A DNA stretch of 8,956 nucleotides from Verrucomicrobiota bacterium (GCA_008932965.1 WBXG01000066.1:1-8956); one strand, 5' to 3'; counted from the first letter of the stretch, positions 1,589 to 8,485 are shown. Made by a program: numbers and translations. The notes: generated from the sequence alone by a model not told the origin.

Positions 1589-1951
1589 GTGTTTCAAGTT
1601 ATTTTTAATCCTATTAGTGCTGCAGAAATGAGTGCTCTTCCCAAAGATCTGCAGCTTGATTTGCTCTCAGAATTTCAGGTCTTGCCAGAGGATCTTCAAC
1701 ATCTCGGAGGTGAACAATTTGGTACGATTCATCGTGATGGAAGAACACTTCATCGCTATCGCTGCCTCGATTACCGAATCTATTTTGAGTCACATGCTCA
1801 AGGAATTGTTGTTCATCGTGTGCTTCATAAAAATACAATTCGTGATTTTCTTTTTCGCTCTGAACTTCCTATGAGCGAAGATGAACAGGTGGCCGATGCT
1901 GGAGCTTTTTGGAAACTCATTGATGAGGCAGATGCTTCAAAAACGTTATAA
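1589..1951 (+). CDS. RelE/ParE-superfamily toxin-like small protein with an acidic C-terminal extension
   Basis: 120-aa ORF with a GTG start. AGGA lies 14 nt upstream, so the ribosome-binding site is weak. The layout fits the RelE/ParE pattern: an N-terminal strand (FQVIFNP), LPKDLQ..LL, then HRYRCLDYRIYFES..GIVVHRVLHKNTIRDF, comparable to the family motif R.GDYR.IY....L.VL.V.HR..VY. An alternative ATG start is at 1628. Confidence 0.5.
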   Translation: MFQVIFNPISAAEMSALPKDLQLDLLSEFQVLPEDLQHLGGEQFGTIHRDGRTLHRYRCLDYRIYFESHAQGIVVHRVLHKNTIRDFLFRSELPMSEDEQVADAGAFWKLIDEADASKTL

Positions 1952-1954
1952 AAA

Positions 1955-2030
1955 ATGAACATACAGGCTCCCCTGAGGTATAACAGGCTTTGTACGGCCT
2001 CTCTTTTCACCTCGTTATAAAATATTTAAT
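1955..2030 (+). repeat. Degenerate remnant of the MITE-like repeat (apex plus right arm, terminal repeat eroded)
   Basis: ATGAACATACAGGC (1955..1968) resembles the apex ATGAAACATACAGCC. GCTTTGTACGGC..CTC (1987..2001) resembles GCTTTGCACGGCGCCTC of copy 0 (102..118). The flank ATAAAATATTTAATA (2016..2030) resembles CTAAAATATTTAATA (146..160). Confidence 0.4.
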
Positions 2031-2046
2031 AACCTTTGCTAAAATC

Positions 2047-3162
2047 ATGCATTCAAAAGTTTCTGATTTGCCGACCGAACACAATGATCCTATCAATGCT
2101 GCTATTCTTTCTATTTCTGAGGATAAGATTATTGGATTTCAAAAAGATCCTTTTTTCGTAGTCGCAGAACAATCAGGCATTCCTCTTGAAGTCGTTCTAG
2201 AGCGAATCAAAGCGATGTTACAGGCAGGAACGATTCGACGGATTCGTCAAACACTCGTTGCCAATAATCTAGCAGATGGAGCACTTGTTGCATGGCGTGT
2301 CCCTGAGGAAAAGCTGGAGGCCACTTTTGATTTTTTATTTCAAGAAGATCCTTTCTCAGGTCATGTTGTTATTCGTTCCACAGATGCTAACATTCCCGGA
2401 GCAAAATACCGTCTCTGGACCACGCTCAAAGTCCCAGCAGGGTTTTCCTTGGCAGAGCATTGTGAGCTACTTCTTCAAAAAACAGGAGCGACATCTTTTC
2501 TTCTGCTTCCTGCTAAAGGGATTTTTACACTTGGGGTGGGGCATGTGCGTCGCAAAAAATGTGAACCTGGAGATCTCTCTCCTGAGCCTGCTTCGATGAT
2601 GACCCCAGCAGTAGTTCACCTTTCGCAGCAGGAGTGGAAAATTCTTACGGTATTAAAAAAGGAATTTACCCCAGAAGAAATCACTTCCTTCCCGTGGCGC
2701 TCGCGAGCTCAGGAAGCAGGAGTGACAGAAGAAGAATTTTATGCAGCAGCCCATTCATTTGAGGAGAGAAAGCTTCTTGGGAGGTTCTCCACTTTTTTAG
2801 AACATGTGAAACCCTCATTGTCAGGAGTTCGAGTCACACGTTTTAATGGGCTTTTTCATTGGGCCGTTCCGCCTGGTATGGAGGTGAAGGCAGGAGCTGA
2901 AATTGGACGGCACGACATCCTCACTCATTGTTACTGGCGTGAAGGAGGTCCTGATTTTTATAATGTCAATATCATGGGTGTTGCTCATGGAACCGATCGT
3001 GCTCGACTTTATGAACACAAGGCTGCAATCGATCGGCACCTCGCAGAATGTAATATTCCATTGCTCTATACCAATGTTTTTTGGGGAGGAAGAAGCGAAA
3101 TTAAACCCTCAGAAATTTCCCCTGAAATATATCAGCAATGGAGAGAGAAGATGAAGGGATAG
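2047..3162 (+). CDS. Tandem AsnC/Lrp-fold protein, a fused NirD/NirL (AhbA/AhbB)-like siroheme decarboxylase homolog
   Basis: The ORF track starts at TTG 1990, but that extension runs through a repeat remnant, so ATG 2047 (MHSKVSDLP) is preferred. Two homologous halves each show the family pattern. The first half has VLERIKAMLQAGTIRRIRQ..GALVAWRVPEEKLEA...SGHVVIRS...YRLWTTL...LPAKGIF. The second half has ...GRFSTFL...NGLFHWAVP...LTHCYWRE...YNVNIMGVAHG. Confidence 0.55.
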   Translation: MHSKVSDLPTEHNDPINAAILSISEDKIIGFQKDPFFVVAEQSGIPLEVVLERIKAMLQAGTIRRIRQTLVANNLADGALVAWRVPEEKLEATFDFLFQEDPFSGHVVIRSTDANIPGAKYRLWTTLKVPAGFSLAEHCELLLQKTGATSFLLLPAKGIFTLGVGHVRRKKCEPGDLSPEPASMMTPAVVHLSQQEWKILTVLKKEFTPEEITSFPWRSRAQEAGVTEEEFYAAAHSFEERKLLGRFSTFLEHVKPSLSGVRVTRFNGLFHWAVPPGMEVKAGAEIGRHDILTHCYWREGGPDFYNVNIMGVAHGTDRARLYEHKAAIDRHLAECNIPLLYTNVFWGGRSEIKPSEISPEIYQQWREKMKG

Positions 3163-3186
3163 TGGTGCTTGTTTCGAGTATTCAGG

Positions 3187-3370
3187 TTAATCCGAATAGT
3201 GCATACCAATCTACTACGGAATCCGGGAAGTCAGATGGATGCTGCGTTGATCTCGAAGTCTTCCTCGGGCAGTAGGGACACATACAGCCCTGCATCAAAA
3301 TGCTCGCCTGCCTTACCCCATCAGCTTTCGCGGCCTCCTCGTCACGATCAGTATGAAACATCCGAGTTAA
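3187..3370 (+). repeat. Palindromic MITE-like repeat, copy 1, with a degenerate left terminus and a mosaic body
   Basis: TTAA at 3187..3190 and 3367..3370. The period to copy 2 is exactly 180 bp. Positions 3281..3370 match 3461..3550 at 89 of 90 positions. Confidence 0.9.
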
Positions 3371-3550
3371 CCCGGATATTTCATACTGATCTACTACGGA
3401 AGCCGGGAAGTCAGATGGATGCTGCGTTAGACTCACATTTTGATTTGGGCAGTATGTGCACATACAGCCCTGCATCAAAATGCTCGCCTGCCTTACCCCA
3501 TCAGCTTTCGCGGCCTCCTCGTCACGATCAGTATGAAACATCCGGGTTAA
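3367..3550 (+). repeat. Palindromic MITE-like repeat, copy 2, the best-preserved canonical unit
   Basis: The unit is TTAA-CCCGGATATTTCATACTGATC ... GATCAGTATGAAACATCCGGG-TTAA. The terminal inverted repeat matches at 20 of 21 positions. The dyad centre is GTATGTGCACATAC at 3452..3465. Confidence 0.92.
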
Positions 3551-3601
3551 GTTCAAAACACGATTCCTTACTCTTGTTTTTTGAAAAGTTAATATTTTTT
3601 G

Positions 3602-3943
3602 ATGCCTTTAAAAAATTTTAAAACTCGTTCACCTGGTCTATCAGATCCGATTTTTTTATTTACTTTAAGAGTATTATTTTTCGTGGCTGGGGCTCTCGTG
3701 CTTGCGAGTGCTTGGGTTCTAGTTCCACAATGGATGAGTAGTAGTGTGAATCATCTGGCTCCAGGAGCAAAACCTCAGAGATCTGTTCTGGGTCTCTTCA
3801 AGCCTGGTCTGAGTGGAACTATCCATCATGAAAAAATGAAGGAAGAGATGGTATTGCCTTCTGATTCATTAAAAAAAGCTAAGGATTTACAATCTACTCC
3901 TTCCTCACAAAAGGTCTTAAACGAAAAAGAGACAAAATTCTAA
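3602..3943 (+). CDS. Hypothetical small membrane-anchored protein (one N-terminal TM helix, Lys/Ser-rich tail)
   Basis: The ORF track start at 3599 is TTG and is immediately followed by ATG at 3602. The TM segment is IFLFTLRVLFFVAGALVLASAWVLV. I do not recognise a family. Confidence 0.5.
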   Translation: MPLKNFKTRSPGLSDPIFLFTLRVLFFVAGALVLASAWVLVPQWMSSSVNHLAPGAKPQRSVLGLFKPGLSGTIHHEKMKEEMVLPSDSLKKAKDLQSTPSSQKVLNEKETKF

Positions 3944-4451: not shown

Positions 4452-4732
4452 CTAACCCGGATATTTCATACTAAAAATATTACAACTTGTGAAAAATTCT
4501 ATGACTCCTGTGTTGGTTTTGAATTGTGGTATGGATGGTAGGGACTCCTACAGCCGTATATCAAAATACATGTCTGTGTTGACTCACTCGCTCCCGCTCG
4601 TCTCGCCCTTTCAGGGCTGCCTAAAAGAAGTAGAAGTCTCTGGCAGTCCCCCCGCGGTCTCCCGACCTCCGGTGGTGCCCCATCAGCCTTCGCGGCGCCT
4701 CGCGACGAACCAGTATGAAATATCCGGGTTAA
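4452..4732 (+). repeat. Palindromic MITE-like repeat, copy 3, expanded to 277 bp per unit and probably rearranged or composite
   Basis: CTAA-CCCGGATATTTCATACT at 4452. The right end is CAGTATGAAATATCCGGG-TTAA (4711..4732). About 97 extra nt lie in the right arm (about 4569..4675). Confidence 0.85.
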
Positions 4733-4912
4733 CCCGCATATTTCATAATGATTCTGCTGCGGCTTGCGAACACCTGATGGATACTGCGTCAGCTTCGAAT
4801 TGCTCCTCGGGCAGTATGAAACATACAGCCGTCGTCGCAATCCATCACCTTCCTTGTCTGCATCAGGATTCGCGGCGCCTCGCAACGAACCAGTATGAAA
4901 TATGCGGGTTAA
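4729..4912 (+). repeat. Palindromic MITE-like repeat, copy 4, a canonical 180-bp unit
   Basis: The unit is TTAA-CCCGCATATTTCATAATG ... CAGTATGAAATATGCGGG-TTAA. The spacing from TTAA to TTAA is 180 bp (4729 to 4909). The apex is GGGCAGTATGAAACATACAGCC at 4809..4830. Confidence 0.92.
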
Positions 4913-4970
4913 GTTAAAAGTGCATCTATTTGTGAAATTTGTTAATATCATCCTGTTATTCTTTTGACGT

Positions 4971-5579
4971 ATGAATTCTTTTCGAACTTTTTTTCTTTTG
5001 CTGCTCCTCGTTTTTCTTTTTTCCAGTTGTGCATCATATGATCATCGCCTCAACGACCCCTCGACGCGTTACCTAGGATTAAATGGTTCGCTCACTTCTC
5101 AAGAGCGTGGGACTTTTGCTGACCGTATTTCTTACTGGGATGGAGATGCTATTTCCGGAGCTCCCTCAATTGCCATCGATCTGAGTGAACAGCGACTCTA
5201 TTACTACAAAGGGAATAAACTTGTTGCCATTTCTGCTGTCTCTACGGGAGCAGAAGGGCGTGAAACAAAAACTGGTCATTACAGAATTATGAAAAAAGAT
5301 CTTCATCACGTCTCCTCTGAATGTGGAGATTATGTCAATAACCAAGGGGAAGTTGTGATTAAAAATGTTGTTGTTCGGGAGGTGCCAATGCCCTCAGGGG
5401 CGCATTTTGTCGGCTCTCCCATGCCTTATTACATGATGGTCTATCCAGGAGTAGGAATGCATACAGGGTTTCTTCCTGGGGTTCCTGATTCTCATGGGTG
5501 CATTAGACTGCCTGATCGTATGGCAAAAATCTTTTTTGAAGTAACCCCAATGGGCACACCTGTTACTGTGCAAAGGTAA
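4971..5579 (+). CDS. L,D-transpeptidase (YkuD domain) lipoprotein
   Basis: 202 aa. A signal peptide with a lipobox is present (LLLLVFLFSSC). The YkuD features are IAIDLSEQRLYYYKGNKLV and the catalytic motif SHGCIRLP near the C-terminus. Confidence 0.88.
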   Translation: MNSFRTFFLLLLLVFLFSSCASYDHRLNDPSTRYLGLNGSLTSQERGTFADRISYWDGDAISGAPSIAIDLSEQRLYYYKGNKLVAISAVSTGAEGRETKTGHYRIMKKDLHHVSSECGDYVNNQGEVVIKNVVVREVPMPSGAHFVGSPMPYYMMVYPGVGMHTGFLPGVPDSHGCIRLPDRMAKIFFEVTPMGTPVTVQR

Positions 5580-5726: not shown

Positions 5727-6572
5727 ATGTTCTCCATCCATATTGCTCGTCATGGACAGCCTCTCGGTTCTTTTAGTGAAGAAGAAATTCGCGAAGGTAT
5801 TTCTTCAAAACGTTTTTTGAGAGATGATTTGGTATGGCGTATTGGAATGAGTGACTGGACTCCCTTGCATGAAGTTGCCGATGCCTGGGGCTTTGATATC
5901 GCTCAGTTGGGTGAGGTGATCACCAAGGGAGTAATACCACCTGATTGCATGGAACCAGCTTGGGAGAGACGCCATCAGCTTGGTTTCATCAAGGCCATCT
6001 ATCTTACCATAAAAATGGTACTCCTTGCTCCTAATCATGCATTTTCTAGGTTACAAATGACAGGAGGTTTCATGAATCCTCTGTTCTACTACCTCATCAT
6101 GGCAAGTCTTAGCTTTGCTATAAGAATTCTCTTTGAAACACCTCTGGTTTTAAAAAACCCTTCATTGTTAGGGACTCAATTTGCCTCGCTTTCTCAAAAT
6201 AATATCATTGTAGGTGCTATAGTTCTTATTTTTTTAAGCCCGCTTTTCTTTATCATTGGCATCTTTTTTTCCTCTGCAATAACGCACCTTAGTCTCAAAT
6301 TAGTTAAGGGAGCTCACGAGCCTTATGAGGCTACATTTCGTACATTCTGTTATGCATTAGGCTCTGTTGCAATTTTTCAACTTTTTCCGCTTCTTGGTGG
6401 AATCATTGCTGCCTTTTGGGGTGTGTTATCTTACTTTATTGGGTTAAAAAAAGTACATGTCATCTCATCGTGGCGAACCTTTTTTGCCATTTTAATTTCA
6501 ACAGTGATCTCTTTTGTGATCGTGATGGTGATGGTCGCGATATTCATCGTAACCTCAGGGGTCAAAGTCTAA
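5727..6572 (+). CDS. GYF_2 (DUF4339)-domain plus Yip1-like multi-pass membrane protein
   Basis: The N-terminus is of the GYF_2 type (G.F..EEI..GI......DDLVWRIGMSDWTPL). It is followed by about 5 hydrophobic helices in a Yip1-like arrangement. Confidence 0.7.
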   Translation: MFSIHIARHGQPLGSFSEEEIREGISSKRFLRDDLVWRIGMSDWTPLHEVADAWGFDIAQLGEVITKGVIPPDCMEPAWERRHQLGFIKAIYLTIKMVLLAPNHAFSRLQMTGGFMNPLFYYLIMASLSFAIRILFETPLVLKNPSLLGTQFASLSQNNIIVGAIVLIFLSPLFFIIGIFFSSAITHLSLKLVKGAHEPYEATFRTFCYALGSVAIFQLFPLLGGIIAAFWGVLSYFIGLKKVHVISSWRTFFAILISTVISFVIVMVMVAIFIVTSGVKV

Positions 6573-7335
6573 TTGTCTGACTTATAGTATCAGGTCTAGC
6601 ACACCATCGTTGAAGAGAAGATGAGTCATCAATAATTGAGTGAATTGCAGCAAGTGCTAATTCCTCTCGGTTACAATCAGCGCTTAAGTGACCTAAAGCC
6701 ACGTAACGCAACTCTTGATGAAGGAGATATTTTAATAATGCTGCTGCTGCATGATTGGAAAGATGACCGTGGCGGGAGGCAATACGTTGTTTTACAGCCC
6801 ATGGACGCTTAGTGTCTTGTTGAAGCAGTTCTTCATCGTAGTTGGCTTCGAGCAACAACCCATCCACATTATGCAAGGCATCAAGTACAAGTGACGAAGC
6901 ATAACCAAGGTCTGTTGCAAATCCAAAAGAGTATTTTTTTTCACGTAGGACGAATCCAACTGGATCAACAGCATCATGGGGGATCGAGAAAGAACGAACA
7001 TCAAGACTCCCAATGAGAAAAGAGGATCCTGTTTCAAAAATTTTCCATAACCGATGCTCCTTTATTTTATCACGAAGTACCGTTGCTGTATGGCGATTGC
7101 AATAGAGTGGTGTCGAGTAGTGCTTGCACCACTGGTCTAATCCTTTGACATGATCTCCATGTTCATGAGTAATTAAAATGCCTGAGATTTCCTCAGGCGT
7201 CACCCCGCAAAGAGCTAAACGTTCCCGAAGTTTTTTTGCGCTCAGGCCTGCATCGACAAGCACCGTGGCTCCTTCTGAACGCACCAGTGTTGCATTACCG
7301 CTGCTTCCACTGGCTAGAATGGTGACTTCAAACAT
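6562..7335 (-). CDS. MBL-fold metallo-hydrolase (YycJ/PhnP-like)
   Basis: The N-terminus is MFEVTILASGSSGNATLV and the metal-binding motif is ITHEHGDHVKGL. A later GHLS motif is also present. The ORF track begins at GTG 7353; ATG 7335 gives the family-typical N-terminus. The stop codon TGA is at 6564..6562. Confidence 0.85.
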   Translation of the reverse strand: MFEVTILASGSSGNATLVRSEGATVLVDAGLSAKKLRERLALCGVTPEEISGILITHEHGDHVKGLDQWCKHYSTPLYCNRHTATVLRDKIKEHRLWKIFETGSSFLIGSLDVRSFSIPHDAVDPVGFVLREKKYSFGFATDLGYASSLVLDALHNVDGLLLEANYDEELLQQDTKRPWAVKQRIASRHGHLSNHAAAALLKYLLHQELRYVALGHLSADCNREELALAAIHSIIDDSSSLQRWCARPDTISQTIRL

Positions 7336-7420
7336 TTCGTAAGAATGACGCACTGTTTTCTAGAGTACGAGATTTTTTACAGTTTCTAATTTTATTTTTT
7401 TATCTATAGTTCACTTTCAG

Positions 7421-7493
7421 GCGCTCGTAGCTCAGGGGATAGAGCAGGGGATTTCTAATCCCTTGGTCGCAGGTTCAAATCCTGCCGAGCGCA
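7421..7493 (+). tRNA. tRNA-Arg (anticodon TCT)
   Basis: The cloverleaf was folded by hand. The acceptor stem pairs GCGCTCG (7421..7427) with CGAGCGC (7486..7492), and the discriminator is A7493. The D-loop is AGCTCAGGGGATAGAGC. The anticodon stem is GGGGA/TCCCT with loop TT-TCT-AA. The T-arm is GCAGG-TTCAAAT-CCTGC. No CCA is encoded. Confidence 0.9.
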
Positions 7494-7510
7494 CGCTATT
7501 CGAACTATTC

Positions 7511-8383
7511 ATGGATATAATCAATCACAGTTCCATATCATTTAATGCTCTCAAGCTTGTTCGCTTTTTAGATAATCTCCCATTTTTGGAGATGCTTTTG
7601 ATCATTGTTGGAGTAACAGTTTTCATTGCAATATTGATGATAATAATAACTCATTATTTTATCGGGGAAAAAAAATATGTTGTTTCAGAAGGTGCTTTTG
7701 TAGCAAATGATATTAATGCCGGTATTGTAGGACTTATCTTAGCTTTTATTGTTGTTTCCATGTATGAAACGAATCAAAAGGCTAAAGAGAGCATTATGAA
7801 AGAGACAAGCATCTTGTGTTCTATTTTGAATACGTCGCAAATTCTCGACAATGCTGATCAGATTCGTGCTCTTGTACAGAGGTACACTCAAACTGTTACT
7901 CAAGAGGAGTGGCCATTGATGTGCTCTGGAAACATTGATAAAATATGGAGTTCCTCAAGCTTCATGATCAATCCTAAGACTCATGAGTTTAAAAATCCTT
8001 TTTACAAAGTTGTACAGGAGTCCCACCCCAAGGGAGTTATCCAAGAGAGTTTCTATAACTCACTTCCCAATTTATTAGAAAAATTAACCGATGCTCGTCG
8101 CACGCGAATTGAAGCTGCTGATTTTCATCTACCTATTCAATTTTGGAGAATTATTATTTTGATGACGATTATCTTGGTTTGGTTTGTGGTCTATATGAAT
8201 CCGTGTAATGGATGGCATTCCGTGATGCCAGTTGTTGTTTCATCACTCGTCATAGGCCTCTGTCTCTCCCTTTTGATTTCACTCCATTACCCATTTCTTG
8301 GCCCTTTTGCTGTTTCAACAAAGCCTTATTTTGAAGGTCCGCTCAATTTTTCAGTGACTCATAGCTCCTCTCAAAAAGAGTAA
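7511..8383 (+). CDS. Hypothetical membrane protein, possibly DUF4239-like (1-2 N-terminal and 2 C-terminal TM helices around a soluble helical region)
   Basis: The ORF track start at 7463 lies inside the tRNA gene. The first ATG downstream of the tRNA is 7511 (MDIINHS). The family assignment rests on topology and length only and is not secure. Confidence 0.7.
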   Translation: MDIINHSSISFNALKLVRFLDNLPFLEMLLIIVGVTVFIAILMIIITHYFIGEKKYVVSEGAFVANDINAGIVGLILAFIVVSMYETNQKAKESIMKETSILCSILNTSQILDNADQIRALVQRYTQTVTQEEWPLMCSGNIDKIWSSSSFMINPKTHEFKNPFYKVVQESHPKGVIQESFYNSLPNLLEKLTDARRTRIEAADFHLPIQFWRIIILMTIILVWFVVYMNPCNGWHSVMPVVVSSLVIGLCLSLLISLHYPFLGPFAVSTKPYFEGPLNFSVTHSSSQKE

Positions 8384-8384
8384 C

Positions 8385-8485
8385 TTAACCCGAATATTTC
8401 ATACTGATCTATTACGGAAGCCGGGAAGTCAGATGGATGCTGCGTTAGACTCACATTTTAACTTCGACATTATGTGCCAATAGAA
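8385..8485 (+). repeat. Half copy of the MITE-like repeat, copy 5 (left arm plus apex only)
   Basis: TTAA-CCCGAATATTTCATACTGATCTATTACGGAAGCCGGGAAGTCAGATGGATGCTGCGTTAGACTCACATTTT is nearly identical to 3367..3442. Similarity ends just past the apex (TATGTGCC, about 8470..8485). No right arm or right terminal repeat follows. Confidence 0.85.

Follow-up and report, generated by a model that had tools for sequence, protein, structure and literature searches.

Several families of miniature inverted-repeat transposable elements (MITEs) have been described in bacteria, among them Correia/NEMIS in Neisseria, RUP in S. pneumoniae, ERIC in enterobacteria, MaeMITEs in Microcystis and MITEPye1 in Paracoccus. 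They are 100-300 bp long, non-coding, intergenic and bounded by terminal inverted repeats (TIRs), they are multicopy, with subfamilies and mosaics, and they form hairpins if transcribed. All this applies likewise to the repeat described here, a 176-bp palindromic element present in seven copies on a stretch of 8,956 bp (43% G+C) from Verrucomicrobiota bacterium (GCA_008932965.1 WBXG01000066.1:1-8956), the whole of which is called the window in the following. Judging from its ends and its target, the repeat is very probably a non-autonomous MITE of the IS1380 type, presumably moved in trans and inserting at TTAA/YTAA.

The known bacterial MITEs have other parents, IS630 in the case of RUP and IS1182 in that of MITEPye1, whereas ends and target of the window elements point to IS1380. 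RUP and Correia generate TA duplications and have ends unlike those of the window MITEs, whose flanks fit the 4-bp TTAA/YTAR duplication seen in full-length relatives and not TA; for Correia and ERIC we know of no transposase and of no link to IS1380. The original prediction had likened the repeat to Correia, ERIC and RUP: this was right for the architecture and did not extend to the ends, nor to the TA duplication of RUP and Correia. REP/BIME or ERIC elements were also considered as candidates and rejected, because the repeat is a 176-bp unit with defined TIRs, not a 20-40-nt palindrome headed by GTAG/CGTC, and has no Rfam match. For bacterial MITEs in general, movement in trans is ascribed to a related insertion sequence (IS), as reasoned for MITEPye1 and IS1182 (PMC11578231).

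Members of the IS1380 family have inverted repeats of ~16 bp and direct repeats of 4-5 bp, 5 bp in the case of IS1247, and can use surrogate ends to move adjacent DNA (PMC3281130). With elements of this family (IS1380A, ISEcp1, IS1247, ISBdi2; transposase models NF033539/PF13701, DDE_Tnp_1_4) the window MITEs have in common the CCCG start, the AT(A)TTTCA-type motif, TIRs of ~15-28 nt and a 4-bp direct repeat at YTAR; they differ in lacking a transposase gene and in measuring 176 bp against 1.65-2.1 kb. ISEcp1 and the other clinically known members have different TIR sequences and 5-bp direct repeats, and the family owes its renown mainly to ISEcp1 and to the mobilisation of neighbouring genes rather than to MITEs.

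A further likeness concerns the eukaryotic transposon piggyBac, which inserts at TTAA with a 4-bp duplication and whose ends begin with CCC and finish with GGG; piggyBac and its MITEs thus resemble the window elements in TTAA insertion and in CCC...GGG ends. The IS1380 transposases are regarded as distant prokaryotic relatives, or an outgroup, of piggyBac (PMC10140906, PMC10813416). Unlike piggyBac, the elements described here have a bacterial host, their related transposases belong to PF13701, and the target is the looser YTAR, often CTAG where hosts are GC-richer. No match among the solved piggyBac structures in the PDB was obtained with a profile built from IS1380 transposase sequences, and at the level of sequence the relation to piggyBac is one of resemblance, not of membership.

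Copies of the repeat in the window

Allowing up to three mismatches, the 18-nt element end CCCGGATATTTCATACTG had nine matches in the window, against a mean of 0.01 in 200 shuffles. Five were on the minus strand (128-145, 3349-3366, 3529-3546, 4711-4728 and 4891-4908) and four on the plus strand (3371-3388, 4456-4473, 4733-4750 and 8389-8406). The copies themselves were defined by repeat finding, alignment and an nhmmer profile scan, and all seven places listed in the original prediction proved to be real. The element proper measures 176 bp and is flanked by 4 bp, TTAA or sometimes CTAA, one TTAA being common to the two members of each tandem pair. The copies lie at five sites, all on the plus strand, and align in register; four are full and form two tandem pairs, one is cut by the window edge, one is a left half and one a decayed right half. 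Their TIRs, taken as inverted repeats in the window, are 20-26 nt long and 92-100% complementary.

The best-preserved copy is c3 (3367-3550; element proper 3371-3546; profile score 200), with 25-nt TIRs that are 96% complementary and TTAA at 3547-3550. It stands in tandem with c2 (3187-3370; element proper 3191-3366, 176 bp; TTAA on each side; profile score 197), with which it has the TTAA at 3367-3370 in common and 88% identity; the left TIR of c2 is degenerate (TCCGAATAGTGCATACCA). In the second tandem pair, c4 (4452-4732) is a long variant of 273 bp, with CTAA on the left, TTAA on the right, 20-nt TIRs of 100% complementarity and a GC-rich insert of 97 nt at ~4579-4675, and c5 (4729-4912; element proper 4733-4908; profile score 173; TTAA at 4909-4912) belongs to an arm subfamily termed B; the TTAA at 4729-4732 is common to both. 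About 40 nt of the left end of c1 (1-149) lie outside the window, so that nhmmer profile positions 41-184 align at 4-149; its right end, CAGTATGAAATATCCGGG (128-145), is an exact TIR match followed by the flank CTAA (146-149), and its arms are of a subfamily termed D, as are those of two copies on other contigs (L065 4-158 and L088 339-524). The left half c6 (8385-8481; profile positions 1-97) consists of TTAA, left TIR and left arm up to the centre, without a right half; it is 91% identical to c3 and begins 2 nt past the stop codon of a gene for a Bestrophin-like protein. The relic c7 (~1954-2030) matches the right half of a copy like c1, less some internal deletions, and extends from ATGAACATACAG at the centre to a right end that has degenerated. 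It was not found by nhmmer at E<1e-3, and its local alignment with c1 scored 20.5, against a shuffle mean of 8.7 and with none of 1000 shuffles reaching that score. The right flanks of c1 (146-160) and c7 (2018-2031) have an exact 14-mer in common, TAAAATATTTAATA, which could be part of a subfamily end or target, or the trace of a local duplication.

Altogether the copies span 1148 bp. They account for 12.8% of the window and for 65% of its non-coding DNA, in agreement with the earlier statement that they make up most of the latter. No transposase was found: tblastn with an IS1380 transposase had no match in the window, and the open reading frames (ORFs) overlapping copies (3169-3621 and 4489-4917, both on the plus strand) had no Pfam match. 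Being small, non-coding, intergenic, TTAA-flanked and bounded by TIRs, the repeats form a MITE-like family, as originally proposed.

The same two long ORFs traverse the tandem pairs, and in a Joint Genome Institute (JGI) freshwater metagenome contig that overlaps the window (L119; a Logan contig, L120, overlaps it as well) the stretch 1165-1581 is called as a 138-aa gene across c4-c5. Stop-to-stop ORFs in related loci likewise traverse copies. ORFs through tandem MITE pairs are most likely annotation artefacts.

The ends are those of IS1380-type insertion sequences

The terminus of the repeat was also found, with different interiors, in Nitrosomonas, Endozoicomonas, Thiomicrospira, Salinisphaera, Sulfuricella, Limisphaerales and Desulfoluna, among others; one terminus bounding different interiors across so many taxa indicates a widespread transposase. 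Pairs of such ends lying 1.2-2.1 kb apart enclose full-length ISs. On an Endozoicomonas metagenome-assembled genome (MAG) contig, L112, the element at 1912-3642 reads CTAA-CCCGAATATTTCATAAAAG ... TTTATGAAACATTCGGG-CTAA and carries an ORF of 482 aa that matches NF033539 (transpos_IS1380, E 1e-104) and PF13701 (E 6e-134). The element at 1-2085 of a Verrucomicrobiae MAG contig, L060, is bounded by CCCCAATATTTCATAGG and CCCGCATATTTCATAAC and flanked by TTAG, and its transposase of 485 aa is 45% identical to that of IS1380A of Acetobacter and 50% identical to that of an IS on a P. putida plasmid. Degraded or partial versions of the same pattern are present on L096 and L087.

A metagenome scan with a transposase alignment supplied 80 further IS1380 loci (L125-L204), and those with both ends present follow the pattern YTAR-CCCG(C/G)AT(A)T(T/C)TCA(C/T)A. 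Over 15-17 nt the MITE ends, CCCG-N-ATATTTCATA, do not differ from the ends of L112 and L060 or from those of the metagenomic loci L128-L142, and they fit the consensus of the 80 loci. Among named plasmid elements, related ends occur in the IS on the P. putida plasmid pKF715A (CTAG-CCCGCATTTCTCACAG) and in ISBdi2 (CTAG-CCCGTCTTATTCGTCAG). The transposases of L060 and L112 are only ~33% identical, yet the terminal 15-17 nt are nearly unchanged between them and the YTAR target is the same. The original prediction had not recognised the sequence as a named family and had tied its novelty to termini that match no catalogued one; the termini turned out to be typical IS1380 ends, the same 15-17 nt that bound elements encoding NF033539/PF13701 transposases, and at the level of the family the repeat is therefore not new.

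The target duplication can be read from the full-length elements. Non-palindromic flanks are equal on both sides in four of them (TTAG/TTAG in L139 and L198, CTAA/CTAA in L150 and L112), and because these 4-mers match on both sides, the IS1380-type family duplicates 4 bp of a YTAR target. Most full MITE copies are flanked by TTAA on both sides, and several have one CTAA and one TTAA; the direct evidence for a 4-bp duplication comes only from the full-length relatives. With TTAA the window elements occupy the AT-rich version of the target of the IS1380 family.

Two side observations concern flanks and ends. In the full-length ISs L157 and L172 the two flanks differ, CTAG facing TTAA, in contrast to the equal flanks of other elements; this would be in keeping with a rule that is not strict or with recombination of two IS copies. 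The fifth TIR base (CCCG-N-AT) agrees between the two ends within a copy (G/C in 6, C/G in 4 and A/T in 2 of 19 MITEs; alignment A2, columns 9/190), and the same agreement is seen within individual ISs (L128-L142); it seems either that both ends of one element are kept matched or that the subfamilies go back to different master ISs.

Dispersal in related genomes

A scan with AACCCGNATATTTCATA through one genome per species (596 Gb) returned at least 118 stretches. Since ~280 matches are expected by chance in 596 Gb, single matches carry little weight; clustered matches with inverted pairs 150-190 bp apart are real. With a family profile built from c2, c3 and c5 we found, among the matches listed, ~35 related copies on 14 contigs of three MAGs (Spartobacteria Kiruna_bin-02438, Chthoniobacterales Tobar2m-G38 and Chthoniobacterales SMAG_U8253), and on this ground the claim of a family extending beyond the window holds. 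The copies in these relatives stand at unrelated loci, each with the same TIRs and TTAA: the MITE family is dispersed and not a local duplication. Individual copies can be very close across genomes, c5 being 96.7% identical to a Tobar2m copy (L081 4343-4526) and c3 90.8% identical to another, and neighbouring copies with one common TTAA recur (L088 160-524, L117 5245-5689 and, head to head, L081 4169-4526). A blastn search of the MITE against a plasmid collection had no match; on viral contigs there were six singleton pattern matches.

The Kiruna contig L107 is syntenic with window positions 6235-7494 at 72% identity, which places the window in a related lineage of Verrucomicrobiota. At 1424-1639 it carries a MITE, 66 bp past the orthologous tRNA-Arg; the corresponding interval of the window (7494-7511) has no copy, and the gene downstream of the tRNA differs between the two. 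From this difference we conclude that the region past tRNA-Arg is a hotspot of rearrangement or insertion.

Anatomy, arm subfamilies and folding

Each copy is a long imperfect palindrome, in which a TIR (22-25 nt, CCCG-N-ATATTTCATACTG) is followed by a left arm, a central mini-hairpin, a right arm that approximates the reverse complement of the left one, and the second TIR. The conserved central mini-palindrome, GGGCAGTATG..CATACAGCC, lies at 3444-3472 (plus strand) in c3. In sequence the centre of the element is similar to the inner portion of the right TIR (CAGTATGAAACAT); it is at the centre that the half copies c6 and c7 break. There are at least three arm subfamilies, A (c2, c3, c6), B (c5) and D (c1), and their arms occur in mosaics: L033a joins a B-type left arm to an A-type right arm, L055b and L105b join A-left to D-right, and L117b (2680-2866) has a left-type arm at both ends. 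A short form of 101 bp (L055 2489-2589) has a B-type left arm fused directly to the right TIR. The tandem pairs of today have 42-nt perfect-like palindromes at their junctions.

The insert of c4 is found again in copies on L105 (5630-5907) and L117 (5241-5511), and because they have it in common the long form is a subfamily of its own. The GC-rich insert measures 80-97 nt (window 4579-4675, L105 ~5763-5845, L117 ~5300-5374 and, in part, L107 ~1510-1590) and holds a small hairpin of its own, GGGCTGCC...GGCAGTC.

Single copies are predicted to fold very stably, c3 as RNA with -81.5 kcal/mol (z -9.9) and as DNA with -45.5 kcal/mol (z -9.0), and a second single copy as RNA with -72.6 kcal/mol (z -6.5). 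When the whole-element hairpin was laid over 19 full copies, 73% of cells were paired against 33-42% in slid controls, with 88% in the TIR helix and 87.5% in the central mini-hairpin (helix 8); the hairpin tested was itself derived from one of the compared sequences. RNAalifold kept the TIR pairs alone, with a covariation term of -0.65 kcal/mol, so that neither RNAalifold nor the pairing counts gave evidence that an RNA structure is under selection over and above the inverted repeat itself. Promoter-like sites (11 against 15.6 expected) and terminator-like sites (7 against 7.7 expected) were not enriched. Rfam, run on the whole window at E<=1, returned the tRNA-Arg plus sub-threshold chance matches only; a miRNA model matched the TIR-TIR junction with 27 bits against a gathering score of 90.

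Other short elements with the same end

Besides the family of the window, the same end bounds several other classes of short element. In Beta- and Gammaproteobacteria there is a MITE family of 165-166 bp with ends TTAA-CCCG-N-ATATTTCATAAA and a palindromic interior, which varies by lineage with arms that remain complementary; it was found in Nitrosomonas (L068 631-796, L097 2134-2299, L106 2998-3163), Thiomicrospira (L044 1837-2001, L079 984-1148), Salinisphaera (L047 1924-2089, L045 6992-7157), Endozoicomonas (L095 753-918) and Sulfuricella (L023 6503-6667). Elements of 80 bp with the same ends occur in Candidatus Sororendozoicomonas (L006 2142-2221, L026 5902-5980, L043 5000-5079 and 6511-6590, L046 2836-2915), and there are micro-palindromes of ~27-33 bp, such as AACCCGAATATTTCATAAAAATATTCGGGTT, that hold little beyond two overlapping TIRs (L015 ~2750-2783, L034 ~5335-5367, L094 ~1480-1509). 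Both may be collapsed elements or remnants of excision.

Elements of a 134-bp class were found in Limisphaerales (L116 287-420, L032 7570-7704) and Saelkia (L059 3044-3177), one of 179 bp in Hydrogenedentota (L016 1598-1776), one of 214 bp in Desulfoluna limicola (L070 6070-6283), and further ones of ~245 bp (L067, L110, L090) and of 383 bp (L031 730-1112). From these same-ended short elements in other phyla and classes, the formation of MITEs from the IS1380 clade looks recurrent.

Gene context

The genes of the window are ordinary and mostly on the plus strand, and the repeats occupy the spacers between them. They encode a nucleoside-recognition 'Gate' membrane protein (247-1557), a NirDL/AsnC-like protein (2047-3162), a YkuD L,D-transpeptidase (4971-5579), a GYF+Yip1 protein (5727-6572), an MBL-fold hydrolase (6562-7353, minus strand), tRNA-Arg(TCT) (7421-7494) and the Bestrophin-like protein (7511-8383). 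A sub-threshold Rfam match to 'Plastid-ycf2 5UTR' antisense to tRNA-Arg (7421-7494, minus strand; 28.6 bits against a gathering score of 65.7) is a tRNA artefact.

That the copies are co-oriented with the genes, as had been suggested from the window, was not borne out in the relatives, where among copies between co-directional genes four are in antiorientation (L003, two copies on L033, and L100) against two to four in co-orientation (L038, L117). The co-orientation of five out of five in the window is best read as chance.

Discussion

Our assignment of the repeat to non-autonomous IS1380-type MITEs builds on the copies and their anatomy, on their spread over many contigs of related genomes, on the identity of their ends with those of IS1380 elements and on the 4-bp YTAR duplication of that family. 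Several results weigh against it. Among 138 IS ends, none matches the MITE arms beyond ~17-18 nt and the best scores lie inside a broad background, the MITE interior being unrelated to any of the ISs sampled; likewise, in none of the 80 metagenomic ISs does the subterminal sequence match the MITE. By tblastn of 120 loci, ISs were found in other lineages only and none in the 8-kb pieces from Chthoniobacterales, and for lack of a transposase in those pieces an IS1380 partner in the same genome is unproven. The comparison of L107 with the window gave no clean pair of filled and empty sites, as the synteny stops at the tRNA. The target duplication of the MITE itself is not provable from sequence, because its TTAA target is almost invariant, and several copies have mixed CTAA/TTAA flanks. 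Mobility and activation in trans are what we infer. The literature searched, not exhaustively, held no description of the MITE sequence and no IS1380-derived MITE, and a literature search with the end sequence returned one irrelevant primer match.

Other origins have to be weighed against this. The repeat could be a structured intergenic hairpin selected by the host, acting as RNA (an mRNA stabiliser, processing site or attenuator, as proposed for ERIC, Correia and REP-BIME) or as DNA, whose transposon-like ends are incidental or ancestral. The great stability of single copies (-81.5 kcal/mol, z -9.9, and -72.6 kcal/mol, z -6.5, as RNA), the excess of paired cells over controls in 19 copies, with the centre at 87.5%, and the position of the window copies in short spacers of co-directional genes speak for this; any inverted-repeat element, however, shows such excess pairing, the structure was taken from one of the compared sequences, and RNAalifold retained the TIR pairs alone with almost no covariation. 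The free mosaics of arms, including left-type arms at both ends, oppose a co-adapted stem, relatives carry copies in either orientation to genes, sites resembling promoters or terminators are no more frequent than expected, and there is no Rfam match. We therefore consider selection as the origin of the hairpin improbable, and it is in any case compatible with a MITE origin, to which it would add a function.

A MITE of the IS630/Tc1-mariner type, as are RUP and Nezha and, in architecture, Correia, would have a TA-only duplication and ends ACCCGG...CCGGGT. With this agrees that a left flank YT precedes AACCCG in nearly all matches, which is compatible with Y-TA-[ACCCG...], but the full-length elements with these ends encode IS1380 and not IS630 transposases, and where the direct repeats are TTAG/TTAG or CTAA/CTAA the TA model needs terminal mismatches in exactly those cases. 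The TA-only duplication is ruled out by these non-palindromic 4-bp repeats, and we regard an IS630-type parent as very improbable. Least credible of all, to a degree that makes it nearly negligible, is a local segmental duplication or recombination in the window without any mobile family: two tandem pairs inside 9 kb and the 14-nt right flank common to c1 and c7 would suit it, but the same TIRs and TTAA bound copies at unrelated loci on the 14 contigs of three other genomes, and the flanks of the window copies are otherwise unrelated.

Taking the copies as non-autonomous IS1380-type MITEs, we propose that a DDE transposase of the IS1380 type, produced from another place in the genome, would bind both ends, cut out or copy the element and insert it at TTAA, or at the looser YTAA/YTAR, duplicating 4 bp. 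Each insertion would recreate a perfect TTAA beside the element end, a good target for new copies, and the tandem and head-to-head pairs with one TTAA may have arisen because new copies frequently insert into the duplication left by an earlier copy. TAA stop codons would furnish further TTAA targets, which may explain why copies accumulate just past genes (c6, c7 and c2 lie 2-25 nt after stops).

The 176-bp unit itself probably originated from an inverted pair of ~100-bp monomers whose long junction palindrome collapsed into the central hairpin, and the 42-nt junction palindromes of the tandem pairs may represent an intermediate of this sort. The arm mosaics, the half copies and the 101-bp short form could then have come from recombination, either at the conserved centre or between the CAGTATGAAA repeats inside the element and those at its ends. 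The published behaviour of IS1380 is compatible with such end-shuffling, since surrogate ends there move adjacent DNA. Copies co-transcribed in runs of co-directional genes would form very stable RNA hairpins and may possibly affect their neighbours.

A wider proposal, which we put forward as doubtful, is that a TTAA/YTAR-specific IS1380 clade with YTAR-CCCG-N-ATATTTCA ends might be the bacterial counterpart of piggyBac, with an end of ~17 nt kept near-constant as the transposases diverged to ~33% identity, and might repeatedly have spawned MITEs in at least five phyla or classes, namely Verrucomicrobiota, Beta- and Gammaproteobacteria, Desulfobacterota and Hydrogenedentota. If the proposal were true, the end and target rules of piggyBac would predate the split of the prokaryotic and eukaryotic lineages, and the window MITEs would be a natural substrate set for these rules, including seamless excision.

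The novelty of the repeat is that its parent family is not usually linked to MITEs; otherwise it is an ordinary bacterial MITE, and the basic picture of MITE function is unchanged. In practice the copies break metagenome assemblies, many matches lying at contig ends, and yield spurious gene calls such as the 138-aa 'gene' across c4-c5, so that recognising them improves the annotation of MAGs from Chthoniobacterales and related bacteria. For the IS1380 family, our results tie to it a family of MITEs and reveal one conserved end that is common to unrelated short elements in many phyla.

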